Assembly: GCA_029259715.1 (NCBI GenBank)
Contig: JAJDEP010000003.1
Location: 701,174-765,173 of the forward strand
DNA from: Planctomycetota bacterium
Lineage (GTDB): Bacteria > Planctomycetota > B15-G4
Reading direction: 5' to 3'
Length of the DNA: 64,000 nt
Positions within the stretch are counted from its first letter, which is position 1; each line of letters opens with the position of its first letter. Under the pieces are notes generated by a model. The model was not told where the DNA came from and did no database searches. It was given only the letters and a program-made list of their open reading frames with translations. Made by a program: the position numbers and the translations under genes. This document shows positions 35,484-50,377 of the stretch, in pieces.

Positions 35484-36503
35484 TCAGAAGGTGAGCGCCA
35501 ACCCAGTGGAGAGCTGGAATCCCAGCGGGGAGATGCCCCCGTCCAGGACGGCGGTCTGCAGCGACAACTCGAAGCCGATGAGCGCCGGGTCATCCGGGAC
35601 AGCGAACGGGAGCGTGATGTTCCCGCCCGAGTCTGTCGCCGTGACGACCTGGGTCAGGATGTCGTCCACCGAGAACAGGCAGCCGCCGCTGCCGGGGATC
35701 GGTGTGCCCACGTGTCCGACGCCGATGAACAGGACCGCCGGCGACAGCGGCGGCGTGTTACTCACTCGCAGGACGAAGTCGAGGTTGCCCAGGGCCGGAG
35801 TGCCGGCGGACAGGAGCGGCACGGCCCCCCCGGGAGTGCACGCCGAGAGAATCAGCTCCTGCTCCGCCGTGGGCGTCACGTTGCGCGCGCCCAGCGTGGG
35901 CGAGGCATCGCGGAACCAGCCGCCGGGCTGCAGGTCCGTCCCGGTGCCCCGTGCCAGGGAGATATCGAGGCCCGGAACCGGGAGGAACTCCGAAGGGTCG
36001 GGCCACCGCTGTGCCTGGGTCGCCACGTCGGCGCCGTTCTGCTGTCCCGCCCCCCACTGCACGAAGTCGATGACGTTGGCCGGGTCGAGGCACAGTCCCG
36101 CCGGAAACGGGCCGGCCTCCCAGCGCGTCAGCAGGAGTGAGCCCGCGTCGACGCTCAGGTTCGGCACACCCAGGGGCAGCCACAGGTCCACCTCGGTATC
36201 GAGGCCGCTGTCGTTGACGTGAACGCGCACCGAAGCGCCCGGCGCCAGCAGCACGTCCGCGAGCTTCACCGACACGAATTGCTGCATGCACAGTTGTGTC
36301 TCACCGAGATCGGCGGGCACGGCGCCCACGTTGGTGATCTCGATCACCTGCGCCGGCGACGGCTGGAATGCAGGCCGCAGCAGGACCTCAGAGAGTTCGA
36401 AGGTCGGCAAGGTCGACTGACCCGCCAGTGGCGGCGCCCCCCATCCGAGAGACACCAGCAGGACCAGGACGACTGGGGACGTCAGGACAGCACGCATGGG
36501 CAC
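35484..36503 (-). CDS. secreted protein with N-terminal lamin-tail-domain-like (LTD) module
   Basis: Signal peptide (MPMRAVLTSPVVLVLLVSLGWGAPPLAG). LTD-like motif TFELSEVLLRPAFQPSPAQVIEITNVG. Confidence 0.58.
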   Translation of the reverse strand: MPMRAVLTSPVVLVLLVSLGWGAPPLAGQSTLPTFELSEVLLRPAFQPSPAQVIEITNVGAVPADLGETQLCMQQFVSVKLADVLLAPGASVRVHVNDSGLDTEVDLWLPLGVPNLSVDAGSLLLTRWEAGPFPAGLCLDPANVIDFVQWGAGQQNGADVATQAQRWPDPSEFLPVPGLDISLARGTGTDLQPGGWFRDASPTLGARNVTPTAEQELILSACTPGGAVPLLSAGTPALGNLDFVLRVSNTPPLSPAVLFIGVGHVGTPIPGSGGCLFSVDDILTQVVTATDSGGNITLPFAVPDDPALIGFELSLQTAVLDGGISPLGFQLSTGLALTF

Positions 36504-36790
36504 ACCTCAGCAAGGGAGGGGCACACGCGTTCCCCCATGGTGACGAGCGCGAGCGACCCCGATTCCGACGCAAGGAGACGTCACCACCCCGGCGTTTTCG
36601 TGCACGGATTTGGTGTCCGCTATTGACTCGCGGCGGCCCTCAGGGCGTCACCCTTGCCTTGATCAGGGCCAGCCTGTCGTCATCACGGTCTGCCCACACC
36701 AGGACTCTCATTCGATGGGCTCCGTGCGCACCCGCCCGAAGGCGTTCACACCGCAACCGGTGGAAACGATGAGGGCTGGCCGGTCACCGG

Positions 36791-37138
36791 TCATGGTCCA
36801 TCAAAGATCGGAGTCACTCTGACTTCTGCCAATTGACCGTCGCTTCCCATGACCAGCTCCACGTAGTACTCCGCCGTTCGCCCCTCCTGCACTTCGGTCA
36901 CCGTCGCCTTGTAGCTCTTCGAGAATCGATCGAGAGACAGGGGGGGCCGATGGGAACTGGCGAATGCTGCCAACTCGCTCTCCTTCGTCCCGATAGGAAT
37001 CTCGCGAAGGATCCTCGCCCTCAGCTGCTCAGCCAACTCTGAAGGTGACGCCTGACACGCACACAAACACACGAGAATGGCGGCGGTGATGGCATGCGAG
37101 GCGTACCGACGTGACGTCGTGATCCGAGTCACCTGCAT
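36791..37138 (-). CDS. hypothetical lipoprotein (115 aa)
   Basis: Internal ATG giving MQVTRITTSRRYASHAITAAILVCLCACQA (lipobox L-C-A-C). Moderate coding bias. Confidence 0.4.
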   Translation of the reverse strand: MQVTRITTSRRYASHAITAAILVCLCACQASPSELAEQLRARILREIPIGTKESELAAFASSHRPPLSLDRFSKSYKATVTEVQEGRTAEYYVELVMGSDGQLAEVRVTPIFDGP

Positions 37139-37387
37139 CTCCTCGATGGGGTCAGGAATCGCGCACAACGCTCGCCTCCCGTCCCCACGGGTCCTTGCTC
37201 GGCGACCCAGCTCACCGGAATCTGCACGAATCCGGCTCCCGTCAACCTCTTTCGCGACGCTGCATCGCTGTGGTGCGGAGGACGTTCACTACGATCGCAG
37301 GGTGCGACTGAGTTTGCGGTCGGGACAGGTCTCGACGCTGCGGTGGCCGAGGAGTTTCTGGAGCGTGCGGATGTCGGCTCGTGAGAC

Positions 37388-37621
37388 TCAGGCCCTGGGC
37401 TTGGGCGGCGGCAGGGCGCGCGCCTTCTCGTCGGACTGGAAGGCTTCCATGTTGTGGGTGCCGTCGCAGAACGGCTTGTTGTTGGACTTCCCGCAACGGC
37501 AAAGAGAAATCGTGGTACGCCCGGCAAGATCGAACTTGGCACCCGTGCCGTCGGTGATGTCGAACGCGCCGGTCACGCGCAGGGGGCCATTGACCATGAC
37601 CTGAATCGTCGTGTCGTCCAT
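37388..37621 (-). CDS. CDGSH iron-sulfur domain protein
   Basis: Canonical CDGSH 2Fe-2S motif CRCGKSNNKPFCDGTH. Confidence 0.8.
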   Translation of the reverse strand: MDDTTIQVMVNGPLRVTGAFDITDGTGAKFDLAGRTTISLCRCGKSNNKPFCDGTHNMEAFQSDEKARALPPPKPRA

Positions 37622-37636
37622 CGGCGTTCTCCTTGT

Positions 37637-37673
37637 TGTCGGGCAGCGTGTGACAATGTCGGGCAGCGTATGA
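37637..37673. promoter_or_regulatory. 17-bp direct repeat (GTCGGGCAGCGTRTGAC x2, 20-bp periodicity) in the divergent CDGSH / HugZ promoter region
   Basis: Read directly: gtcgggcagcgtgtgac aat gtcgggcagcgtatgac. Lies between the CDGSH start (37621) and the HugZ-like start (37811). Confidence 0.5.
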
Positions 37674-37810
37674 CGTTCCGGGCATCCGATCCAACGGCGC
37701 GCCGGGTGGGCGCTGGCTCCCGAATGGCAGGGTCGGGTGCTCCCTCTTCACGGTCCGGCCCGCAGAGTCCACACTCCGTGCTTCCAGGCGGCCATCCAGG
37801 AGACGACCCC

Positions 37811-38641
37811 ATGCCCGACGCGCTCCAGAAGGCCCGGGAGGCCTACGCCACCTTTCTCGACGACTTCCGGAGCGTGGTTCTCGCGACGGTGGATGCCGAC
37901 GGCAAGCCGGGCTCGAGCTATGCGCCTTGCCTTGTGGATGACGACGGCACGATCTGGTGTTTGGTGAGCGGTCTTTCGATCCACACACGCAACGTGGAGG
38001 CGACGGGTCGGGCCAGCGCGCTCTTCATCGAGGACGAGAGCCGGGCCCAGCAGATCTTTGCCCGCCGTCGTCTGAGCTTCGACTGCGACGCCGCCGTCCT
38101 GTCACGCGAGCATGAGGCCTTCGCCGATGTGGCCGCCCGCTTCGCGGAAGCCTTCGGCAGCATCGCGGAGCAGATCGCGAGCATGCCCGACTTCCGACCC
38201 TTGCGGCTGCAGCCCGTGTCCGGCCAGTTCGTGATCGGCTTCGGCGCGGCCTACCACGTGGAGCGCGGACAGCTGTCGCACGTGACGGGTGGCGGCCAGG
38301 GACACGGTCGCGCCCACGGCGGAGCGGGTGCTCGGCCCCCTGCCCACGGCGCGGGAGGCGGCGCGGAGCAAGCCCTCACGCCGGAGGCGGTGGCGGCCAT
38401 CCTGGGGCACATGAACGACGACCACGCCAGCGCGGTCTTGCACTACGCGACGGTGCATGCCGGCCTGCACGAGGTGCAGTCCGCACAGCTGGTCGATCTG
38501 GACGGCGAGGGAATGGAGATCCTTGCCAGCACCCCCGCGGGTGCAATCCGAGCGCGCGTCCCCTTCCCCCACACCATCGCGACCCGCGGCGCGGCCCGCG
38601 AGATGCTCATGGCCATGGCCCGGCCGGCAACCGAAGAGTGA
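37811..38641 (+). CDS. HugZ/HutZ-like heme-binding protein (PNPOx-like split barrel + DUF2470-like C-terminus)
   Basis: Internal ATG of ORF 37454..38641 (MPDALQKAREAYATFLDDFRSVVLATVDADGKPGSSYAP). FMN-binding-like fold signature. Gly/His-rich linker, then C-terminal LTPEAVAAILGHMNDDHASAVLHYA as in DUF2470. Confidence 0.72.
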   Translation: MPDALQKAREAYATFLDDFRSVVLATVDADGKPGSSYAPCLVDDDGTIWCLVSGLSIHTRNVEATGRASALFIEDESRAQQIFARRRLSFDCDAAVLSREHEAFADVAARFAEAFGSIAEQIASMPDFRPLRLQPVSGQFVIGFGAAYHVERGQLSHVTGGGQGHGRAHGGAGARPPAHGAGGGAEQALTPEAVAAILGHMNDDHASAVLHYATVHAGLHEVQSAQLVDLDGEGMEILASTPAGAIRARVPFPHTIATRGAAREMLMAMARPATEE

Positions 38642-38753
38642 TCGGAGCGTAAACACCTCCGCGCCGCATCAACAACGATCGCCCACATGTGCGCGATCCT
38701 CGCGCACAGCGTCTGCTCTCCGCACTTGCCCGCGGCTTGCTCATGAGGCGTGT

Positions 38754-38828
38754 TGGTTCCCCGGCGAGGACTCGAACCTCGAATGCCAGAACCAAAATCT
38801 GGAGTGTTGCCGATTACACCACCGGGGA
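38754..38828 (-). tRNA. tRNA-Gln (anticodon UUG)
   Basis: Manual fold of the reverse complement: acceptor TCCCCGG/CCGGGGA with the U1:A72 pair typical of tRNA-Gln, D arm GTGT-AATCGGCA-ACAC, anticodon stem CCAGA/TCTGG with loop TTTTGGT (anticodon TTG), T arm CGAGG-TTCGAGT-CCTCG, discriminator A, encoded CCA. Confidence 0.85.
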
Positions 38829-38976
38829 TCCGGGCGCCGGCCGTGGGCCGTGCGCGCGGTGCGATGATACGCAACACCACGGCGGACTGCCCCTCCATCG
38901 GCCACCGGGTGCCGTGTCGATCAGCGCCGCCGGGCCCGGCTTGAAGGCCTCTCTCGGCGTTTCATAGGCTCGGTCG

Positions 38977-40449
38977 ATGATCGATCGGGGGCACGTCGGA
39001 TGGCACCACTCCCTCCCGCCGCTCCTCATCGGCCTGGCCCTCTGCGCCGCCCTTGCGTGCGGCACCCAAGCGCCGGCTGACGCGCCCGACCCGTCGACCA
39101 CCAACGCGCCCTCTGCCACGGGCGCCCTTGCCCCCGCCAACGCCCCCCGTCCCAACGTCATCGTCATCCTGGCCGACGATCTCGGCTATGGCGACGTCGG
39201 CTTCTACGGCGGCACCCGCTACCGCACCCCGGCCATCGACCGCCTCGCCGCCGAGGGCCTGCGCCTCACCGACTTCCACGTCGCCGCGCCCGTGTGCGGA
39301 CCGAGCCGTCAGGCGCTGTTGAGCGGGCGCTATCCGCACCGCGTCGGCGGCACCGCGAACAACGACGGCATCGACATCGACCCCGAGCGCATGCGCGCCG
39401 AGCTGGCCCGCTTCTTCCCGGTGTTCCTAGCCGAGGCCGGCTACGCCACCGGCGCCATGGGCAAGTGGCACGTGCCCACCGGGCCCAAGCTGTGGGTGCG
39501 CGCGCCGGACAGCCCGTCGCGGCCGACGCGCTGCGGCTTCGGGACGTTCCGCGGCTTCCTCAGCGCCATCTGCGACTACGTGACCCACGCCAACCAGCTC
39601 GGGCAACACGACTGGTGGCACGACGACGAACTCAATCGCGAAGAGGGTTACCTGACCCACCTGATCACCGGGCACGCGGTGGAGTTCATCGAGACCCACG
39701 CCGACGAGCCCTTCTTCCTCTACGTCTCGCACCTCGCGCCGCACGTGCCGCACCAGCTGCCGGGCGACGCGCCCTACTTCGTCGAGAGCGACGACGTGGC
39801 CGGCGCGAGGGTCCGCGGCGACGCCACCGACGAGCCCACCTCCCCCGAGCGCTACGGCGCCATGCTCGGCGAGCTCGACGCGTCGGTGGCGACGATCATG
39901 GAGACCGTGGCGCGCCTCGGCCTCGACGAACGCACGCTGGTCGTGTTCCTCTCCGACAACGGCGGCAGCGCGCCCGGCGACTCCGGCCCCTTCGCCGGCG
40001 GCAAGGGCGACCTGCACGAGGGCGGCCACCGGGTGCCCGCCGCGTTGCGCTGGCCGGGTCGCATCGCCGCCGGCACCCGCGACGACAGCCTCTGCTCGGC
40101 CCTCGACCTGGCTCCCACCATCCTCGAGCTCGCCGGCGCGGCGCCGCCGGGCGATCACGAACTCGACGGCCTCAGCCTGGCGCCGTTGCTGCAGGGCGAC
40201 GGCATGCCGACCGGGCGCCGCCTGTTCTGGGAGTGGGGCAACCGCTTCGGCGACGACGTCTACGTGGCAGCACGCGAAGGCTCCTGGAAGATCGTCGGCA
40301 CCCGGGCGGACCTCGCGCTCTACGACCTCGACGCCGACCCCGGCGAGTCCGACGACCTCTCCGAGCGGCACCCCGAGCGGGTCGCGCAGCTGCTGGCCGC
40401 CCACGACGAATGGAATCGGCTCCACACGCCCCCCGCCGAGTCCCGCTGA
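38977..40449 (+). CDS. arylsulfatase-family (Cys-type) sulfatase, secreted
   Basis: PNVIVILADDLGYGDVGFYGG and C-G-P-S-R (VCGPSRQALLSGRYPHRVG). Signal peptide/lipobox LALCAALACGT. Confidence 0.9.
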   Translation: MIDRGHVGWHHSLPPLLIGLALCAALACGTQAPADAPDPSTTNAPSATGALAPANAPRPNVIVILADDLGYGDVGFYGGTRYRTPAIDRLAAEGLRLTDFHVAAPVCGPSRQALLSGRYPHRVGGTANNDGIDIDPERMRAELARFFPVFLAEAGYATGAMGKWHVPTGPKLWVRAPDSPSRPTRCGFGTFRGFLSAICDYVTHANQLGQHDWWHDDELNREEGYLTHLITGHAVEFIETHADEPFFLYVSHLAPHVPHQLPGDAPYFVESDDVAGARVRGDATDEPTSPERYGAMLGELDASVATIMETVARLGLDERTLVVFLSDNGGSAPGDSGPFAGGKGDLHEGGHRVPAALRWPGRIAAGTRDDSLCSALDLAPTILELAGAAPPGDHELDGLSLAPLLQGDGMPTGRRLFWEWGNRFGDDVYVAAREGSWKIVGTRADLALYDLDADPGESDDLSERHPERVAQLLAAHDEWNRLHTPPAESR

Positions 40450-40607
40450 GCCGCCCCCGACGCGAGGGGCCGCCGCGGGGCGATCTTCGGACGAATGAGG
40501 TAAGATTCCCGCCCCTCATCGGGCGAGGGAATCGGGCCGGCGCGCGCCCCCGCACGCCGCCCGCCGCCACGAGCCGTCCAACCAACGCCCGACGCCGGAG
40601 CGCCGCC

Positions 40608-41138
40608 ATGGCCGCCAAAGACGACCCCAGCACCGCCAGCCTCGAGAAGGTCCGCGACATCCTGTTCGGGGAACAGGCCCGCACCGCCGACAAGCGCTTC
40701 GCCCGCATCGAACAGCGCCTGGTCAAGGAGCTCACCGACCTCCGCAAGGACGTGATCAAGCGCCTCGAATCGCTCGAGGCCTTCACGAGCAAGGAGCTCG
40801 AGTCCCTCGCGACGCAGATCGGCGAGCACCGGGCCGACACCGACGAGATGGAGAAGGAGATCGACAAGGAGCTGGCCGCCCTCGACAAGGCGCTCGAGAG
40901 CAAGACGTCGCAGCTCACGGCCCAGCACAACAAGTCGGCCAGCGAACTGCGCAACCAGATCCTGACCCAGAGCAAGTCTCTGCGCGACGAGATCACCACC
41001 CGGGCCGACGACCTCGCCGAGGAGCTCGACACGAGCGTCGCCGACCTCCAGGACGTGAAGGTCGACCGCGCTGCCCTCTCCTCCCTCTTCGCCGACCTGG
41101 CCGTGAAACTGGCCGGCAAGAAGGGCGCCAAGAAGTAA
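40608..41138 (+). CDS. hypothetical coiled-coil protein (176 aa)
   Basis: ATG in frame with ORF 39294..41138, whose upstream part is antisense junk. Charged heptad-like sequence (LEKVRDILFGEQARTADKRFARIEQRLVKELTDLRKDVIKRLESLE...) with a Lys-rich tail. Strong GC3 bias. Confidence 0.58.
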   Translation: MAAKDDPSTASLEKVRDILFGEQARTADKRFARIEQRLVKELTDLRKDVIKRLESLEAFTSKELESLATQIGEHRADTDEMEKEIDKELAALDKALESKTSQLTAQHNKSASELRNQILTQSKSLRDEITTRADDLAEELDTSVADLQDVKVDRAALSSLFADLAVKLAGKKGAKK

Positions 41139-41165
41139 GGCGGCGCGCCTCGCGGCGCGGGCCCG

Positions 41166-43127
41166 ATGGCCGACTCCGAAACGCCACGCGACGACGCGAC
41201 ACCGGCCGAGCCCGAAGCGGGGCGCGGTGATGAGGCTCGGAGCAGCGAGGACCGCCGCGACCTCCAGGAGGTCCGGCGTCTGCTCGTGGGCGACGAGATC
41301 AAGCGCCTCGGCCAACTCGAGCAAGAGGTCGAGGACCTGGTTCCCCGCGCCGTCGACGTCGGCCGCATCCTGCCCGACGCCATCGACGCGGCCAACGCAG
41401 AGGACACCGCGCGCCTCGGCGAGTCCCTGACCCCCGCCGTCGAGGGCGCCCTCCACCGCTCGGTGCGCAAGAACCCGCGCGCCCTCGCCGACGTGCTCTT
41501 CCCCGTGCTCGGCCCGGCCATTCGCAAGGCCATCCAGACCTCGCTGGCCGGGATGATCGAGTCGTTCAACCGCACGCTCGAGAACAGCGTCTCGCCGTCG
41601 AGCCTCAAGTGGCGCCTGGAGGCGCGGCGCACCGGGCGCCCCTTCGCCGAGGTGGTGCTGCTGCACACGCTCGTCTATCGCGTCGAGCAGGTCTTCCTGA
41701 TCCACGCCGAGTCGGGGCTCGCGCTGGCCCACGCCCAGTCGCCGACGATCACCGCCGAGGACCCCGACCTCGTCTCGGCCATGCTCAAGGCCCTCGAGGA
41801 CTTCGCCTCCGATTCGTTCGGCGAGGGCGAGCGCGACCCGATCCAGCAGGTGGCCTTCGGCGACAAGGTCCTGCACGTAGCCGCGGGTCCCAAGGTCCTC
41901 GTGGCGGCCGTCGTGCGGGGCAACCCGCCGCCCGACTACAGCGTGCGCATGGCCGAGGCCGTCGAACGCGTGCACACCGACTTCGGCGACGAGCTGGAGG
42001 AGTTCAGCGGCGAGACGGCGCCCTTCGACCGGGCCGACGACGTGCTGGCGGCGCTGCTCGACGAGAAGATCGCGCGGCCCAAGAGCGCCAAACTGATCAT
42101 GGTCGTTTGGGTCGTGATCACGCTCATCGCCCTGGGCCTGCTCGCCTGGGGCGTCACGGCGTTCATCACCTGGCGCATGGACGAACGCGATCGGCGCAAC
42201 GCCCAGGAGCAGCAGGTCAAGGACCTGGGTGAGAACTTCGGCGTGCTCTCGAACCTGAGCCAGTCGATGGAGCAGGCCATCGCCGAGTTGGCGGCCAGCC
42301 AGGACGTGCGCGACCAGGCCCTCGCCGCCAAGGCCGAGCGCCGCCGCCGGCTCATCGCGGCGATGCACACGGCGCCCGGCCTGATGGTGATGGAGATCGG
42401 CGACGACGGCGACCGCCTGCTGCTCACCGGCCTGCGCGACCCCGACGGCGCCGACCCCGACCAGGTCATGCGGGATGCGGGGGTCGACCCCGCGGTGGTC
42501 GAGGCCCTGTGGCAGCCGTTCATGTCGTTCGAGCCCTCCATCGTGCTCACGCGCAGCGGGCGCGTGCTCGACCCGCCCGACGGGCTCGACCTCGCCATGC
42601 GCGGCGACGTGCTGGTGGCCTCCGGCACCGCCGATCATGCTTGGATCATTCGCGCGCGTCTGCTCGCCCCCACCATCGCCGGCGTCTCGGCCTACGAGGA
42701 CGACGGCGTGACCGACCTCGACGTCGCCGCCTTGCAGGCCGTCGCCGCACGCATGGCCGCCATGCACGTGTCGTTCCCGCCGGGTTCGCCCGAGCCCGCC
42801 ATCGACGACGACGTGCGCATGGCCCTCAGCGCCGTCATCGACGAGCTGGAGGCCACCGCCGGCCGCGCCGACCGCCTCGTACGCGTCGAGCTGCGCGGCC
42901 ACATCGAATCGCAGGAGATCGGCCACGGCGTGCTCGACCTCAAGCAGCGCCGCTGCGAGGCGGTCAAGCACGAGCTGGAACTGCTGCATGAAGGCGTGCG
43001 ACTCTTCTTCGTGGTCGTCGAGCAGCAGGACGACGTGGCCGGTGCCACGCCGCCGGCCGGACTCGATCACTTGCGCTTCGTGGACTTCGCCGTGATCGAC
43101 ACCGGCGCCGGGGGGGACGACGGATGA
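41166..43127 (+). CDS. hypothetical membrane protein (653 aa) with central TM helix and possible OmpA/MotB-like C-terminus
   Basis: Long GC3-biased ORF 27 bp after the coiled-coil gene. Central TM (LIMVVWVVITLIALGLLAWGVTAFITW). C-terminal LDLKQRRCEAVKHEL resembles the OmpA-like LSxxRAxAV motif (weak). Stop overlaps the GTPase start (ATGA). Confidence 0.62.
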   Translation: MADSETPRDDATPAEPEAGRGDEARSSEDRRDLQEVRRLLVGDEIKRLGQLEQEVEDLVPRAVDVGRILPDAIDAANAEDTARLGESLTPAVEGALHRSVRKNPRALADVLFPVLGPAIRKAIQTSLAGMIESFNRTLENSVSPSSLKWRLEARRTGRPFAEVVLLHTLVYRVEQVFLIHAESGLALAHAQSPTITAEDPDLVSAMLKALEDFASDSFGEGERDPIQQVAFGDKVLHVAAGPKVLVAAVVRGNPPPDYSVRMAEAVERVHTDFGDELEEFSGETAPFDRADDVLAALLDEKIARPKSAKLIMVVWVVITLIALGLLAWGVTAFITWRMDERDRRNAQEQQVKDLGENFGVLSNLSQSMEQAIAELAASQDVRDQALAAKAERRRRLIAAMHTAPGLMVMEIGDDGDRLLLTGLRDPDGADPDQVMRDAGVDPAVVEALWQPFMSFEPSIVLTRSGRVLDPPDGLDLAMRGDVLVASGTADHAWIIRARLLAPTIAGVSAYEDDGVTDLDVAALQAVAARMAAMHVSFPPGSPEPAIDDDVRMALSAVIDELEATAGRADRLVRVELRGHIESQEIGHGVLDLKQRRCEAVKHELELLHEGVRLFFVVVEQQDDVAGATPPAGLDHLRFVDFAVIDTGAGGDDG

Positions 43128-43624
43128 CTGCTCGCTACAAGGTCTGCATGCTCGGCGCTTTCGCCGTGGGCAAGACCAGCCTGGTGCGCCGCTACGTGCA
43201 CAGCATCTTCAGCGACAAGTACCTCACCACGGTGGGCGTGAAGGTCGAGAAGCGCGACGTCACCGTCGGCGGAGACACTGCCTCGCTGGTGCTGTGGGAC
43301 ATCCAGGGCGAGGACGACCTCGTGTCGATCCGCGAGAGCTACATCCGCGGCGCGCATGGCGTGCTGCTGGTGGCCGACGGAACGCGCAAGGAGACCCTCG
43401 ACAAGGCCCTCGAGCTGCACGAGCGCACGCGCAAGCTGGTGGGGCCCGTGCCCGCCGTGATCCTGCTCAACAAGTCCGACCTCACCGCCGAGTGGGAACT
43501 CGACGACGACCACATCGCCTCCCTCGAGTCCGAAGGCCGGGCGATCCTGCGCACGTCCGCGCAGACCGGGGCGGGTGTCGGCGAGGCCTTCGACGCCATC
43601 GCCCGGGGCATGCACGAGGCGTGA
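43124..43624 (+). CDS. Ras-like small GTPase
   Basis: All five G motifs present: G1 GAFAVGKTS, G2 Thr in YLTTVGV, G3 WDIQGE (DxxG), G4 LNKSD (NKxD), G5 TSAQ. 166 aa. 4-bp overlap with the upstream gene. Confidence 0.85.
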   Translation: MTARYKVCMLGAFAVGKTSLVRRYVHSIFSDKYLTTVGVKVEKRDVTVGGDTASLVLWDIQGEDDLVSIRESYIRGAHGVLLVADGTRKETLDKALELHERTRKLVGPVPAVILLNKSDLTAEWELDDDHIASLESEGRAILRTSAQTGAGVGEAFDAIARGMHEA

Positions 43625-43658
43625 CCACGTCGAGCACCGTGCCGCGGAGGACTTGCAG

Positions 43659-45179
43659 ATGAGCGCCGGCGACACGCTCCCCACGATCTTCTCCGACCGC
43701 CTCGCGCGTCAGGCCGCCGCCGAACTGCACGCGGCCTGGATGCTCGTGGGCAAGGACGGGCGCATCGTCAACGCCGGCGGCGACCTCGAGCACCACGAGA
43801 TCGAGGACGCCCGCCCGGGCGATGACGCCGCCGACGCCCTGCCCCTCGTGGTGGGCCTCGACTTCGGCGCCACCGGCGGCGAGCTGCCCTCGATGAAGCG
43901 CGGCGGCGGTGGCTTCTCCGACGTGAAGGTGTTCCCCGTCACGGACGGCGCGTGGCTGCTGCTGCTCGACAGCAGCGAACGCAGCAAGCAGCTGCGCGGC
44001 ATGCAGCAGCGGGCCCACGACCTCGAGCTCGAGATGCGCCGACGCGGCCGCGACGCGCAGGAGGCCACCGCCGCCCCCACCCTGACCCAGGTGGTGGCCG
44101 ACCTCGGCGCCGCGGTCTACTCGCTGCAACCCGACGGCCGCTTCGAGACCGTGGGCCAGGCGCCCGTCTGGCTCGACGACCTGCGGCGTCGGGCGCCCGC
44201 ACTCGGCGTGACCCCCGACGCCGCTGAGCTCACCCCTTTTCTCGAGGGCTTCCTCGACGAGGCCCGCGAGTTCTGGGCCGACGGCGGCGGCGCGGACCGG
44301 CTGCGCTCGGGCCCCTGGATCGAGACCCTGCCCGACGGCGTCGAGGCGCCCTTCGAGGCCACCGCCCTGCGGCTCGACGACGGCAGCGCCCGCCTGGTCG
44401 TGCAGCTGCTCGGCGCGAGCTTCGAGCAGAACCGCGACCTGCTCCAGGCCGCCCGCAGTACGCGCCTGCAGTTCGATGCGCTGCTCAAGGAGATCGACAA
44501 GAAGGAGCTGCTGCTCTACGCCATCGTGCACGACCTCAACGGTCCGCTCTCGTCCATCGTCGCCAGCCTGTCGCTGCTCAAGGACTCGCAACTCGATCGG
44601 GACCAGGCCAAGGACCTGATCGAACGGGGCGCGCGCCAGGCCAACAAGCAGCTCGACATGATCAAGCAGATCCTCGAGGTGTTCTCGTCGGACATTGCTT
44701 CCATGGAAGCGTTTGAATCCGAGGCCGACAAGGCCCCCGAGGCGGCGGCGTGTCTGCGCGCCGCCGTGGAGACCTACCGCCCCGCCCTGCAGGACCGCGG
44801 CCTCGTGCTGGACCTGTCCATCGAGACGGGCGGCACCGCCCCGGTGGTGGGGTCACCCGACCGACTCGAACGGGTGCTGGGGAATCTGCTCAGCAACGCA
44901 CTGCGCCACAGCCCCGCGGGCGGCACGGTGTCGGTGAGCCTGCACGACGAGGGCGAGACGCTGCGCTTCGTCGTCGAGGACGAAGGACCGGGCGTACCGC
45001 CAGCGCTGGTGGACGACCTCTTCGACCGCTTCATCCAGGGACGCCGCAGCAAGGGCCTGGCCGGGCTGGGCCTCGACTTCTGCCGCACCACGGTGAAGGC
45101 CTGGGGCGGCGAGGTGGGCTACGAGCCCCGCGAGCCGTCCGGCTCCCGCTTCTGGGTGCGGCTGCCCAAGGCCCGCTGA
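43659..45179 (+). CDS. cytoplasmic sensor histidine kinase (HisKA + HATPase_c)
   Basis: Internal ATG of ORF 43575..45179 (MSAGDTLPTIF), 35 bp after the GTPase stop. H-box LYAIVHDLNGPLSSI. N, G1, G2 boxes (LGNLLSNALRHSPAGG, EDEGPGVPPAL, GLAGLGLDFC). No TM helices in the N-terminal ~300 aa. Confidence 0.85.
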   Translation: MSAGDTLPTIFSDRLARQAAAELHAAWMLVGKDGRIVNAGGDLEHHEIEDARPGDDAADALPLVVGLDFGATGGELPSMKRGGGGFSDVKVFPVTDGAWLLLLDSSERSKQLRGMQQRAHDLELEMRRRGRDAQEATAAPTLTQVVADLGAAVYSLQPDGRFETVGQAPVWLDDLRRRAPALGVTPDAAELTPFLEGFLDEAREFWADGGGADRLRSGPWIETLPDGVEAPFEATALRLDDGSARLVVQLLGASFEQNRDLLQAARSTRLQFDALLKEIDKKELLLYAIVHDLNGPLSSIVASLSLLKDSQLDRDQAKDLIERGARQANKQLDMIKQILEVFSSDIASMEAFESEADKAPEAAACLRAAVETYRPALQDRGLVLDLSIETGGTAPVVGSPDRLERVLGNLLSNALRHSPAGGTVSVSLHDEGETLRFVVEDEGPGVPPALVDDLFDRFIQGRRSKGLAGLGLDFCRTTVKAWGGEVGYEPREPSGSRFWVRLPKAR

Positions 45180-45213
45180 CGGGCGACGCGGGAACCGACC
45201 CGGCGCAGGGGCG

Positions 45214-45281
45214 CTGCAGGCGCGGGGACTCTGCAGGCGCGGGGTTACCGCCGTCGCGGGGTTGCCGCCCTCGCGGGGACT
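45214..45281. repeat. four tandem 17-bp repeats (consensus CYGCMSBCGCGGGGNYW)
   Basis: Read directly: ctgcaggcgcggggact / ctgcaggcgcggggtta / ccgccgtcgcggggttg / ccgccctcgcggggact. Lies 35 bp after the histidine kinase stop. Confidence 0.8.
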
Positions 45282-45421
45282 CTCAAAGTGAGATCAGGGC
45301 CGCCGGCCCAGGCGTCGGGGAAGGAGGAAGGGGCAGAGGCCCCGTCGCTGCACTCCGGTTCCCGGGGGAGGAGTCCGGAGTGTTGAGCCCGCACGACCCT
45401 GATCTCGTCTTGGAGGAGACA

Positions 45422-45467
45422 GGGATGCGTCGGGACGGCGGGCAGGGGTTGCCGTCCCGGGCATCCC
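45422..45467. terminator. GC-rich stem-loop between convergent HK and mscL genes (possible bidirectional terminator)
   Basis: gggatgcgtcgggacggc / gggcaggggtt / gccgtcccgggcatccc. A ~17-bp stem with one bulge and an 11-nt loop. No U-tract on either strand. Confidence 0.35.
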
Positions 45468-45638
45468 GCACCTATTGAAGCGCCTCGGGACGAGATCTTG
45501 CATGACGGTCTCGTTACGAGCCGCGCCCGGAGATCGGGGCGCCCGCACCGCCGCGCCCGCCCTGCAGAGCTGCCACGCGGGACTGCGTCCACCCGCCGGC
45601 CGGAGACGACACGGCCGACGGGCGAACAGAGGCCGGCG

Positions 45639-46100
45639 TCAGGCGCTGGCCGGCACGTCCGAGGTGCAGAAACCGCAACGGGTCGCCGCGATCGGGATCG
45701 ACATGGCACACGCCGGGCAGTCCTTCGCCGTGGGCGCGGCCGGTGCCGCCTCTTCCTTCTTCTTCGCGCTGTTCATGCCCTTGATCAGCATGAAGATCGC
45801 GAAGGCGATGATCAGGAAGGAGATCACCGTGTTGAAGAAGGCGCCGTAGTTGACCGTGACCGCGCCGGCTTCCTTGGCGGCCGCCAGGCTCGCGTAGGGG
45901 GCCACCGCTTCCGCGCCGTCCTTGAGGACGACGAACAGGTCGGTGAAGTCGACGCCGCCGAGGGCGAGGCCGATGGGCGGCATGATCACGTCGGCGACCA
46001 TCGACTTGATGATGGTGCCGAACGCGGCGCCGATGATGATGCCGACCGCCATGTCGACGACGTTGCCCTTCATGGCGAACTCTTTGAATTCCTTCAGCAT
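45639..46100 (-). CDS. mscL: large-conductance mechanosensitive channel MscL with C-terminal Cys4 tail
   Basis: Start at internal [28 protein letters not shown]. Conserved MscL blocks ([32 protein letters not shown]). The C-terminus ends in [22 protein letters not shown] instead of the usual helical bundle. Confidence 0.9.
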
Positions 46101-46559
46101 GATTCGTTGTCCTCTGGAGCTTGGGTGAGAATGGGGATGGATGGGCCGCAGCCTGCCACTGCCACGGATTCGGTTTGGTCGATGTGCATAAAGCCCGAAG
46201 GCACAGAAGAACCCAATGCCTTCGTCGCTGGCAACCCTTGCAACCGTTTCGGCGGCAACGGGCACCGTCGAGCCGGATTCGACGAGGCCGGCATGCCCGT
46301 ACACATGCGCTCGGGCGGAGCGATCTCATCGGGCGGCGGAGCATAGGGGCGCCCTGTTTCCGGTGGGCATGACAGTCCCGTCAATGCTTCCGGCCCCGCC
46401 AATGCACCCGGCCCCGCCATCGGACTCGGCCCGGTCATGGCACCCGGCCCGGGGACGCAACACGCTCCCGAGAGCGGGGAGGTTACGATGCGCGCTGGTA
46501 CTACGATGCGCGCGGGTAGCGGAACGGCGGCCGGAGGGTCGCGGCTGGAGGACGAATCG

Positions 46560-47249
46560 ATGCGGGTGCTCATCGTGGATGACGACGCGGACTTCGCGGA
46601 GATCGTCCGTATCGGCCTCGAGCGTCACGAGATCGAGAGCGCCATCGCCCTCGAAGGCGCGGCCGCCCTCCAGGCCCTGACGGACGCTCCGGGCGGGCAC
46701 TTCGATGCGATCCTGCTCGACGTCGAGATGCCGGGCATGTCCGGCTGGGACCTGCTCTACGACCTGCGCAGCACGGGCCGGGAGATTCCCGTCATCTTCG
46801 TCACCGGCCTCGCGGCCACCGATGAGAAGGTGCGCGGCCTCGGGCTCGGCGCCGACGACTACGTGACCAAGCCCATCGAGATCGACGAGCTGCACGCGCG
46901 CATCATGGCCGTGCTCCGGCGCCGCGAGAACGTGGCCCCCCTCGAGTGGGGCACTCTGCGGCTCGACCTGATGCTGCGCCGGGTGCTGCGGGGCGCCGAC
47001 ACGGTCGAGCTGAGCCCCCGGGAATTCGACCTGCTGCTGTGTCTCGTCCGCGCCAAGGGCGAGATCATCTCCCGCGAGCACCTGCTCAGCGAGGTCTGGG
47101 GGCTGGACTTCGACCCCGGCACCAACGTCCTCGACGTGCACATCGGGCGACTGCGCAAGAAGCTCGATCGGACCGGCCCACCGCTGATCCACAACGAACG
47201 CGGCCAGGGCTATCGCATCGAAGCCCGCCAGGACAAGCCCTCGACCTGA
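46560..47249 (+). CDS. OmpR-family response regulator
   Basis: Internal ATG (MRVLIVDDDADF). Receiver Asp in ILLDVEMPGMSG. Winged-helix output (LSPREFDLLLCLVRAKGEIISREHLLSEVWG...GYRI). Confidence 0.9.
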   Translation: MRVLIVDDDADFAEIVRIGLERHEIESAIALEGAAALQALTDAPGGHFDAILLDVEMPGMSGWDLLYDLRSTGREIPVIFVTGLAATDEKVRGLGLGADDYVTKPIEIDELHARIMAVLRRRENVAPLEWGTLRLDLMLRRVLRGADTVELSPREFDLLLCLVRAKGEIISREHLLSEVWGLDFDPGTNVLDVHIGRLRKKLDRTGPPLIHNERGQGYRIEARQDKPST

Positions 47250-47263
47250 CAAGGAACTTCACC

Positions 47264-48142
47264 GTGCTGTTTTCGCTGATCACCCAGGACGCCCCGCAAG
47301 GCGCCATGGAGAATGCCGCCGACACCGTCTCCGCCTGGGTGGCGGCCGGCCAGCAGTTCGCCATCGACTACGCGCCCAGCCTCCTCGGCGCGATCCTGGT
47401 CTTCGTGTTCGGGCGCATCGTCGTGCGCATGCTCGCGAACATGCTCAAGAAGGTCATGCGCAAAGGCGACACCGACCCCATGGTCGCGAGCTTCCTCGCC
47501 AACCTGCTCTACGGCGTGGGCGTCACGGTGGTCATCATCTCGGCGCTCGGCATCCTCGGCGTCGAGACCACCTCCGCCGTGGCCGTTCTCGGCGCGGCCG
47601 GCCTGGCCATCGGCTTCGCCCTCCAGGGCTCGCTGGGCAACTTCGCCTCGGGCGTGATGATCCTGATCTTCAAGCCCTTCAAGATCGGCGACTTCGTCGA
47701 GGCCGGCGGGACCATGGGCGTGATCCAGGACATCGCCATCTTTGCCACCGTCATGAAGACCGGCGACAACAAGAAGGTGATCCTGCCCAACTCGTCCATC
47801 ACCGAGGGCACCATCACCAACTACTCGGCCCACGACACCCGCCGCATCGACCTGATCATGGGCATCAGCTACGACGACGACATGGGCAAGGCCAAGGCCC
47901 TCTTCGCCGATGTGCTGGCCAAGGACCAGGCCGTCCTCGCCGAGCCGGCCCCCACCATCGGCGTGGTCGAGCTGGCCGAGAGCAGCGTCAACTTCGTCGT
48001 GCGGCCCTGGGTCAAGACGGGCGACTACTGGCCCACCTACTACCGGCTGACGGAGGAGATCAAGCGGCGTTGCGACGCCGAAGGCATCTCGATCCCCTTC
48101 CCGCAGCGGGACGTACACCTGCACAACGCCCCGGCCGGCTAG
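47264..48142 (+). CDS. mscS: MscS-family small-conductance mechanosensitive channel
   Basis: GTG start 8 nt after AAGGA and 14 nt after the regulator stop. Conserved MscS TM3/beta-domain region (GAAGLAIGFALQGSLGNFASGVMILIFKPFKIGDFVEAGGTMGVIQDIAIFATVMKTGDNKKVILPNSSI). Confidence 0.85.
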   Translation: MLFSLITQDAPQGAMENAADTVSAWVAAGQQFAIDYAPSLLGAILVFVFGRIVVRMLANMLKKVMRKGDTDPMVASFLANLLYGVGVTVVIISALGILGVETTSAVAVLGAAGLAIGFALQGSLGNFASGVMILIFKPFKIGDFVEAGGTMGVIQDIAIFATVMKTGDNKKVILPNSSITEGTITNYSAHDTRRIDLIMGISYDDDMGKAKALFADVLAKDQAVLAEPAPTIGVVELAESSVNFVVRPWVKTGDYWPTYYRLTEEIKRRCDAEGISIPFPQRDVHLHNAPAG

Positions 48143-48207
48143 GCGGCCCCGGCGGCCCCGGCAGCCCGGCAGCCCGGCAGCCCGGATTCCCGGATTCCCG
48201 GATTCCC
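48143..48207. repeat. composite microsatellite: 2x GCGGCCCCG, 3x GCAGCCCG, 3x GATTCCCG
   Basis: Read directly, immediately after the mscS stop codon. Confidence 0.85.
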
Positions 48208-48718
48208 TTCGAGCCGCCACCGGCCGCGAATCGAGGTGGCCCACGGCCGCCCGAGGACGACCGTGGACCGGAGACTCCGTGTGCAGCGAAGTCCAGGAAT
48301 GCCTCGTCGTGAGGGCGACGTTGAGCCGCGGACTGTGCGTCGCTCGTCTCGGCTAAGCGGGGGCCAGTCTGGCTTGCGGGGCCGCGAGCGGACGTGACGG
48401 TTCCGATAGTGAAGAATCGCGCTGTGCCGATATGTGCGTCTTTATGCGTAGCCCCTTGAGTTGCCGCCTCGGATCACCGATTCACTCGCGCACAGCGCTC
48501 CGCAGAAGCATTGCGTCACTAACGGAGGCGTCAGTCGCCGCCCTTTAAAGCGACCCCTAGATTGCCCCTCGCATGGGGCACCGCTATGGTGTGGCGCCCA
48601 CGGGTGATGCAGGCGCGGTGCGCCGGAGCGAAGGGCCTTCGGGATCCATCTCTCCACTTCTCCGCGAGGGCGTCGCCGCCCCTTACTCAACCGCAGTTAA
48701 CGTCCAGGAATCCATCAA

Positions 48719-50377
48719 ATGAAAAGCTCCACCCCCATCCTGAGCATCCTCGCGGCGACCGTCCTGATGACGGTGCTCCCCGCGTGTGGTTCGCTCGGCC
48801 CCGGCAAGACCAAGCAGGTGCACAAGTCGCCTGACGTTGAAGCCGACGCCATCCACATCGAGCCGGGTGATGAAATCATCACCTACCGCGACTACGCCAA
48901 CCCGCCCGCGCCCAAGGCGCCGGCGCCCAAGGCCATGTCCGCGCCCGCGCCCGTCGCCAAGAGCTACGGCAACGGCCTGCTCGAAGCCCACCTCTACGTC
49001 CCCACGGGTTCGCGCAGCACCTCCGCGCTGCACCTGCTGAAGATCGTCCCCGCTGAAGTCAACGCCGGCGAGGCCTTCGACATCAAGTTCATCGTCACGA
49101 ACCTGTCCGACCTCTCCCTCGACAACGTGCTCATCAGTGATCCGCTGCCGACGGGCTTCAAGGTCTCCAAGACGGACCCGTCGTTCCCCGCTTCCGCCAT
49201 CAGCAAGGGTGAGTGGATGGTCGGCACGCTCGGTCCCAAGCAGCAGAAGACCATCACCATCACCGGCACTGCCGGTGCGGGCGCCGGTTCTCTGGCCTCT
49301 TGCGCCGACGTCGAGTACGACACTTCGATCTGCCTGGCCACCAACGTGGTCCAGCCGGCTCTGAAGCTGACGGCCAAGGGCCCCGCCGAGGTCAGCCTTT
49401 GCGACGACATCTGCATCGACTACATGGTCGTGAACAGCGGCACCGGTAACGCCAACAACGTCATGGTCACCGGGACCTTCCCCGCGGGCCTGACCGACAA
49501 GTCCGGGCGCACCACGTTGAACCAGAACGTGGGCACCCTGGCCGCCGGCCAGAGCAAGAACTTCTCGGTCTGCCTGAAGGGCTCCAAGACGGGCGCCTTC
49601 AGCAACTCTGCCGTGGCCAAGGCCAACGGTGGGCTGACCGCGAACTCGAACGTCGTCAACACGACCATCCGTCAGGCCAAGCTCAGCATCGCGCTCGACT
49701 GCACCCAGAACGCTTACCTGGGCCGCAATGGTCGCTTTGAGCTCACGGTCGCCAACACCGGTAACGCCACGGCAACGGGTGCCGTCGCTGAAGCTGTCGT
49801 GCCCAGCAACATGCACTTCGTGAGCGCCACCAACGGTGGTCGTCTCTCGGGCGGCAAGGTCACCTGGGCCCTCGGCAACATGGCCGCTGGCGCCAAGCAG
49901 ACCATGTCGTACACCGCTGAGGCTCGTACGGCTGGTACCGCAACCTCCACCGCGACGCTCAACGCTGGTTGCGCCGACAGTGTGTCGGCCACGTGCCAGA
50001 CGAGAATCAGCGGCATCCCGGCCCTGTTGGTCGAGGTGGTGGACGAGCGGGACCCGGTCCTCGTTGGTGAGACCGAGACCTACACGATCACGGTCACGAA
50101 CCAGGGTTCGGCCGCCGGTACGAACATCAACGTCATGTGCAACCTGCCCGATGGTCAGGCTTACGTCTCCGCCACCGGCAACACGGCGGGTTCGGCTTCC
50201 GGCCAGACGGTGAAGTTCGCTCCGGTCTCGAGCCTGGCTCCGAAGGCCACCGCCACCTGGAAGGTCGTCGTCCGCGCCACCAAGGCCGCGAACGTGCGCT
50301 TCAAGGTGACGGTCACGAGCACCGAGCTCGGTAGCCGTCCGGTCGAAGAGACCGAGGCGACCACGCTCTACGAGTAA
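48719..50377 (+). CDS. DUF11-repeat surface lipoprotein
   Basis: Lipoprotein signal (MKSSTPILSILAATVLMTVLPACGS). Several ~110-aa repeats of the DUF11 type (e.g. GEAFDIKFIVTNLSD...ITITGTA, VSLCDDICIDYMVVNSGTGNANNV, GETETYTITVTNQGSAAGTNI). GC is noticeably lower than in neighbouring genes. Confidence 0.75.
   Translation: MKSSTPILSILAATVLMTVLPACGSLGPGKTKQVHKSPDVEADAIHIEPGDEIITYRDYANPPAPKAPAPKAMSAPAPVAKSYGNGLLEAHLYVPTGSRSTSALHLLKIVPAEVNAGEAFDIKFIVTNLSDLSLDNVLISDPLPTGFKVSKTDPSFPASAISKGEWMVGTLGPKQQKTITITGTAGAGAGSLASCADVEYDTSICLATNVVQPALKLTAKGPAEVSLCDDICIDYMVVNSGTGNANNVMVTGTFPAGLTDKSGRTTLNQNVGTLAAGQSKNFSVCLKGSKTGAFSNSAVAKANGGLTANSNVVNTTIRQAKLSIALDCTQNAYLGRNGRFELTVANTGNATATGAVAEAVVPSNMHFVSATNGGRLSGGKVTWALGNMAAGAKQTMSYTAEARTAGTATSTATLNAGCADSVSATCQTRISGIPALLVEVVDERDPVLVGETETYTITVTNQGSAAGTNINVMCNLPDGQAYVSATGNTAGSASGQTVKFAPVSSLAPKATATWKVVVRATKAANVRFKVTVTSTELGSRPVEETEATTLYE

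Follow-up and report, generated by a model that had tools for sequence, protein, structure and literature searches.

The window analysed here, a stretch of 64,000 nucleotides from a Planctomycetota bacterium, contains four genes on the same strand that encode, in order, a coiled-coil protein, a 653-aa envelope protein, a small GTPase and a histidine kinase (Table 1). The successive gaps measure 27, -4 and 34 bp, the negative value being an ATGA overlap between the stop of the second gene and the start of the GTPase gene. A preliminary description of this DNA had listed the same four ORFs, the ATGA coupling and a kinase gene close behind the GTPase; all of these can be read directly from the sequence, the one correction being that the last gap is 34 rather than 35 bp. 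By its tight spacing the cluster is operon-like. In a promoter/terminator scan of the locus no promoter-like site came up and terminator-like ones were not in excess over shuffled sequence, and an Rfam scan of positions 36000-50000 identified tRNA only.

Table 1. Coordinates of the Rup1 module and of a nearby response regulator gene in the window
Feature	Coordinates	Strand	Basis
DUFY, 176-aa cytoplasmic coiled-coil protein, first module gene	40608..41138	+	ORF ATG to TAA
DUFX-TM-BON-BON-OmpA-like protein, 653 aa, envelope-anchored	41166..43127	+	ORF ATG to TGA
Predicted longin-fold domain, cytoplasmic, aa ~158-296, conserved core of DUFX	41637..42053	+	predicted model
Single transmembrane helix, aa 310-336, LIMVVWVVITLIALGLLAWGVTAFITW	42093..42173	+	sequence; within AF2 helix 308-354
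Two periplasmic BON-like domains, aa ~404-531	42375..42758	+	Foldseek; Pfam BON in homologs
OmpA-C-like domain, aa ~534-648, sequence-degenerate	42765..43109	+	
Group 1 Rup (Rup1) small GTPase, 166 aa, ATGA start overlap	43124..43624	+	
Kinase N-terminal module d1, aa 1-135	43659..44063	+	AF2 model, conservation, domain distribution
Kinase N-terminal module d2, aa 138-282, PAS-like topology	44070..44504	+	
Histidine-kinase core, HisKA/DHp + HATPase_c	44502..45179	+	
OmpR-family response regulator	46560..47249	+	Pfam Response_reg plus Trans_reg_C

Related loci number at least 573 among species-representative genomes, and 80 of them, from at least seven phyla, were sampled for synteny. The co-conservation that the preliminary description had proposed to check is evident in nearly all of them: the coiled-coil gene lies directly upstream of the 653-aa-type gene in 76 of 81 loci, the GTPase keeps its place in as many, and the N-terminal domain of the output gene in 68. 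Syntenic loci span Cyanobacteria, Acidobacteriota, Desulfobacterota, Gemmatimonadota, Zetaproteobacteria, Armatimonadota and Gammaproteobacteria, and filamentous cyanobacteria frequently carry the module. The recurrence of one four-gene order in distant phyla, together with the 4-bp start/stop overlap, refutes a fortuitous adjacency of unrelated genes, to which we assign a negligible probability. Clustering of the flanking ORFs in the 80 loci revealed no fifth conserved gene; all that recurred was receiver-domain proteins, in roughly one locus in five (REC-domain genes in only ~16-21 of 80), and lineage-specific synteny.

The arrangement had initially been thought to match no textbook module, which was wrong. 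It corresponds, gene for gene and in order, to the Group 1 Rup neighbourhood of Wuichet and Søgaard-Andersen (2014; PMC4316618), DUFY > DUFX-TM-OmpA > Rup > output enzyme, written ‘DUFY>OmpA:DUFX>Rup>’ in Table S2 of that paper for, e.g., Npun_F1891, mlr3243 and sce5816. As defined there, the GTPase is a single-domain protein of at most 240 aa with eukaryote-like G1-G5 motifs and a G3 Asp without the catalytic Gln, no mglB gene is coupled to it, and the output gene encodes a GGDEF/EAL protein or a histidine kinase with an invariant Gln in its N-terminal region. The window encodes a 166-aa GTPase with a Gln-less G3 motif (WDIQGE), DUFY and DUFX-TM-OmpA proteins, and a HisKA/HATPase_c output enzyme with an invariant Gln (the published residue could be Q117 or Q263), and the cluster has no separate Roadblock ORF. 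Judged by sequence, the locus is a member of this published and widespread module (hereafter Rup1), with nothing new in kind; the additions to the published picture, drawn mainly from structural models, are the predicted longin assignment of DUFX, the two BON domains and the two-module kinase N-terminus. No experimental study of the Rup1 system was found in the searchable literature, which returned mostly plant RUP (UVR8).

For the GTPase, the preliminary description had claimed a Ras-superfamily protein with all five G motifs and had named a Ras-family HMM match as its test. Such a match was obtained with Pfam Ras (E=3.6e-27), followed by Roc (1.2e-20) and NCBIfam small_GTP (1.3e-17), and the closest solved structures are Rab21 and Rab1 (about 1e-20). 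The motifs are G1 GAFAVGKTS (aa 11-19), switch-I T36, G3 WDIQGE (58-63), G4 NKSD (116-119) and G5 SAQ (145-147). In pairwise comparisons the protein is 46-57% identical to the GTPases of syntenic loci, Nostoc and Mesorhizobium included; the corresponding values, for human and MglA sequences entered by hand, are 31% for Rab1A, 28% for HRAS and, for part of the length only, 26% for MglA, which is the weakest match among the references (E 4e-5). Its sequence thus marks it as a Ras-superfamily GTPase of the Rup rather than the MglA type. Three deviations had gone unmentioned in the preliminary description. Glu (E63) stands at the position of Ras Q61, leaving G3 with its Asp (D59) and without the catalytic Gln; relatives have E at this position in 56 of 73 sequences and Q in only 3. 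Phe (F13) stands at the position of Ras G12, as in 63 of the 73, and G5 reads SAQ, where 68 of the 73 have SAK. Because of the Glu and Phe substitutions, the GTPase alone probably hydrolyses GTP poorly.

The 653-aa protein is covered by no Pfam or NCBIfam family. Its homologs form at least 2477 clusters, mostly named ‘OmpA family protein’, and the nearest named ones come from Planctomycetota MAGs (35-47% identity). The AF2 model (pLDDT 81.6) predicts a cytoplasmic helical region followed by a longin domain, one TM helix, which coincides with the only hydrophobic span, a pair of BON domains and, last, an OmpA-like one, in line with the earlier reading of a single-TM protein with a possible OmpA/MotB-like C-terminus and with the proposal to look for longin and OmpA folds by AlphaFold. 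The conserved core of DUFX has the modelled topology a-b-b-a-b-b-b-a-a, and its sandwich (b-b-a-b-b-b-a-a) superposes on the longin domains of SNAREs, AP-sigma and TRAPP, SNAREs and AP sigma subunits being the top structural matches. The model therefore points to a domain of the longin/roadblock superfamily, and so to a type of platform by which small GTPases are controlled. Longin domains also have non-regulatory roles, in SNAREs and AP sigma subunits. The earlier statement that no Roadblock/MglB-like partner is visible holds for separate genes but not for domains, as the predicted domain of this superfamily lies inside the 653-aa protein itself.

On the periplasmic side, the BON-like region is matched by BonA, OsmY, DolP and Rv0899 in Foldseek, and Pfam BON was detected in the homologs P0003 and P0023. 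The C-terminal 153 aa gave no Pfam OmpA match even at E<=10; the OmpA-like fold is nevertheless present in the model despite the degenerate sequence, in which the consensus motifs GHxD, NxxLSxxRA and NRRV read GHIE, VLDLKQRRC and LRFV, respectively. Among the peptidoglycan-contacting residues an Arg is kept, the Asp is replaced by Glu, and the Asn and second Arg are lost. As most of the consensus residues are gone, binding of the peptidoglycan wall by this copy is doubtful. The coiled-coil gene ahead of it, also recognized in the preliminary description, encodes a protein with only weak, below-cutoff helical-repeat matches in Pfam and NCBIfam, and its conservation profile has an N-terminal motif, DKIRDILFGxQ..RFxRLEERL, and a C-terminal one, KxDRxxLAxLF.

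The 506-aa kinase, with GGAGGA 8 nt upstream of its ATG, is soluble as had been described: it contains HisKA (aa 282-341, H-box His H291) and HATPase_c (aa 399-505; N409/N413, DEGPGV, GLGLDF) and no TM segment. Its N-terminus divides into two modules that Nostocales encode as separate genes. In the AF2 model d1 has the topology a-b-b-x-b-b-b followed by a helix bearing Q117 (QQxxN-D/E-L); G41, G66 and Q117 are invariant in 26 of 26 sequences, and Q117 remains so in d1 copies that stand alone as a 130-aa protein. Module d2 has a PAS-like topology and continues into DHp through a helix with near-invariant Q263 (conserved in 97%) and R266. An exhaustive search of representatives with residues 1-282 yielded 819 relatives; a word-indexed homolog search with the same region found none, probably because Ala/Gly-rich words swamped the candidates, and when d1 and d2 profiles were compared with PDB sequences nothing rose above noise. 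By hhalign no homology between d1 and d2 was detectable (probability <=2.4%), and a second longin copy in this region was ruled out, since d1 and d2 likewise scored <=2.4% against longin.

Across the loci, d1 or d2 always comes directly after the GTPase gene, with varying enzymatic parts: in 41 loci the outputs are 27 histidine kinases (12 of them hybrid), 5 nucleotide cyclases, one HD and one PP2C protein, and Mesorhizobium carries the same module with a SpoIIE output. d1 and d2 are thus the constant parts of the output gene, and the enzymatic part is exchangeable among relatives. This pattern bears on the idea that the GTPase is a spatial or polarity regulator which, like MglA or SofG, positions an envelope machine, with the OmpA/BON protein as landmark and the kinase as a secondary passenger. 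Small bacterial Ras-like GTPases of known function do act in polarity, and the GTPase has an envelope-anchored partner; however, the next gene in every case encodes a signal-output enzyme that has its own d1/d2 input, no recurrent genes for motility, pili or secretion turned up in the 80 neighbourhoods, and the GTPase, with its G3 Asp, is not of the MglA type, which makes a polarity role improbable. We give still less credence, indeed very little, to an anti-phage or conflict system built on an NTPase switch: GTPase-centred conflict systems exist in multicellular bacteria, and filamentous cyanobacteria are rich in the module, but PADLOC found no defence match beyond coiled-coil noise on the first protein, the outputs are kinases, cyclases and phosphatases with no nuclease, protease or toxin effector among them, and the within-lineage monophyly of Group 1 Rup members was read as vertical inheritance (PMC4316618).

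We consider it likely that the locus is a Rup1 signalling module whose Rab/Ras-like GTPase links a sensor/platform protein, anchored in the envelope, with an output enzyme in the cytoplasm, and we infer the following mechanism. The periplasmic BON/OmpA-like part would report the state of the envelope, such as wall or outer-membrane attachment or a load of osmotic or mechanical origin. On the cytoplasmic side the longin domain, perhaps with the coiled-coil protein, would form a membrane platform that determines which nucleotide the GTPase carries or where it sits, by analogy with the longin and roadblock platforms that do so for Rab, Rag and MglA. The GTP-bound GTPase would then bind d1/d2 and change autophosphorylation of the kinase, altering phosphotransfer to a response regulator. 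No cognate regulator adjoins the kinase; the OmpR-family gene, separated from it by mscL on the opposite strand, is a candidate phospho-acceptor, the link being uncertain. With poor intrinsic hydrolysis the GTPase would need a residue in trans, and Q117 on the helix after d1 is a candidate; the invariant Gln of the output N-terminus, Q117 or Q263 in this copy, is the in-trans candidate already published (PMC4316618).

Alternatively, as in MglB-like systems, the GAP, or a GAP/GEF, would be the longin domain inside the 653-aa protein, leaving the kinase N-terminus a pure effector with structurally conserved glutamines. The Roadblock protein MglB is the GAP for MglA, and conservation of Q117 could indeed be structural because this residue sits in a long, likely dimeric coiled-coil helix. 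We regard this alternative as rather unlikely. Within the signalling-module reading, a bolder proposal, held only tentatively, is that DUFX, the constant companion of Rup1, genuinely regulates this GTPase as a longin-type GEF or platform, in a Rab-like GTPase/longin partnership already existing in bacteria as an envelope-sensing device. If so, this pair, the organiser of eukaryotic membrane traffic, would predate eukaryotes in bacterial envelope signalling, and GTPase and longin could have reached eukaryotes paired, along with the d1 trans-glutamine GAP/effector mechanism.

Rup1 deserves attention as a very common bacterial group placed with eukaryotic Rab/Ras/Rho/Ran in published phylogenies (including PMC4316618); its thousands of protein clusters bear NCBI names such as ‘Rab family GTPase’ and ‘OmpA family protein’. 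Four conserved genes without assigned function now raise specific binding and catalysis questions through a testable family-wide architecture: a predicted longin platform joined to envelope domains of the BON and OmpA-like types, a GTPase whose active site has the unusual Phe12/Glu61 pair (Ras numbering), and portable, putatively GTPase-facing d1/d2 modules before interchangeable kinase, cyclase or phosphatase outputs.

Several known systems resemble parts of this module. The BON-then-OmpA-like periplasmic arrangement is shared with M. tuberculosis Rv0899/ArfA and related envelope proteins (OsmY, DolP, BonA), which have neither a cytoplasmic longin domain nor a GTPase partner. Eukaryotic Rab longin-GEF platforms (Mon1-Ccz1, TRAPP, DENN) show no sequence homology to the longin domain of the window (6-12% identity), and here a single predicted longin domain, with putative GEF activity, is tethered to a bacterial envelope protein. 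The actinobacterial conservon (CvnA-D; Mfp), proposed as an analogy to Group 1 Rup in PMC4316618, likewise combines a histidine kinase, a small GTPase and a roadblock-superfamily domain in four genes, but there the kinase is a membrane protein (CvnA), the Roadblock protein has its own gene (CvnB), and a DUF742 protein (CvnC) and an MglA-group-2 GTPase (CvnD) complete the set, and these families do not occur here; conservon membership was rejected, as there is no DUF742 or Robl_LC7 Pfam match and the kinase is soluble. MglA-MglB of Myxococcus and Thermus also pairs a small Ras-superfamily GTPase with a longin/roadblock-superfamily partner and has two-component links. MglA lacks the G3 Asp (TxPGQ type) and keeps the catalytic Gln, whereas the window GTPase is Rab/Ras-like, with D59 and E63, and MglB is a small soluble Roadblock dimer with its own gene, whereas the longin-type domain predicted here lies within a transmembrane envelope protein; membership of the MglA family was rejected on D59, the missing mglB gene and the weakness of the match to the hand-entered MglA sequence. 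The closest system remains Group 1 Rup as represented by Npun_F1891, mlr3243 and sce5816, with the same four components in the same order, the same GTPase size (166 aa), the lost G3 Gln, the invariant output Gln and a histidine kinase as one of two typical outputs. In comparison, the locus described here has a degenerate OmpA-like domain, SAQ instead of SAK in G5 and both d1 and d2 fused to the kinase, and in the model of its DUFX protein, which carried no assignment in the published system, a longin domain stands ahead of the TM helix, the BON pair and the OmpA-like domain.

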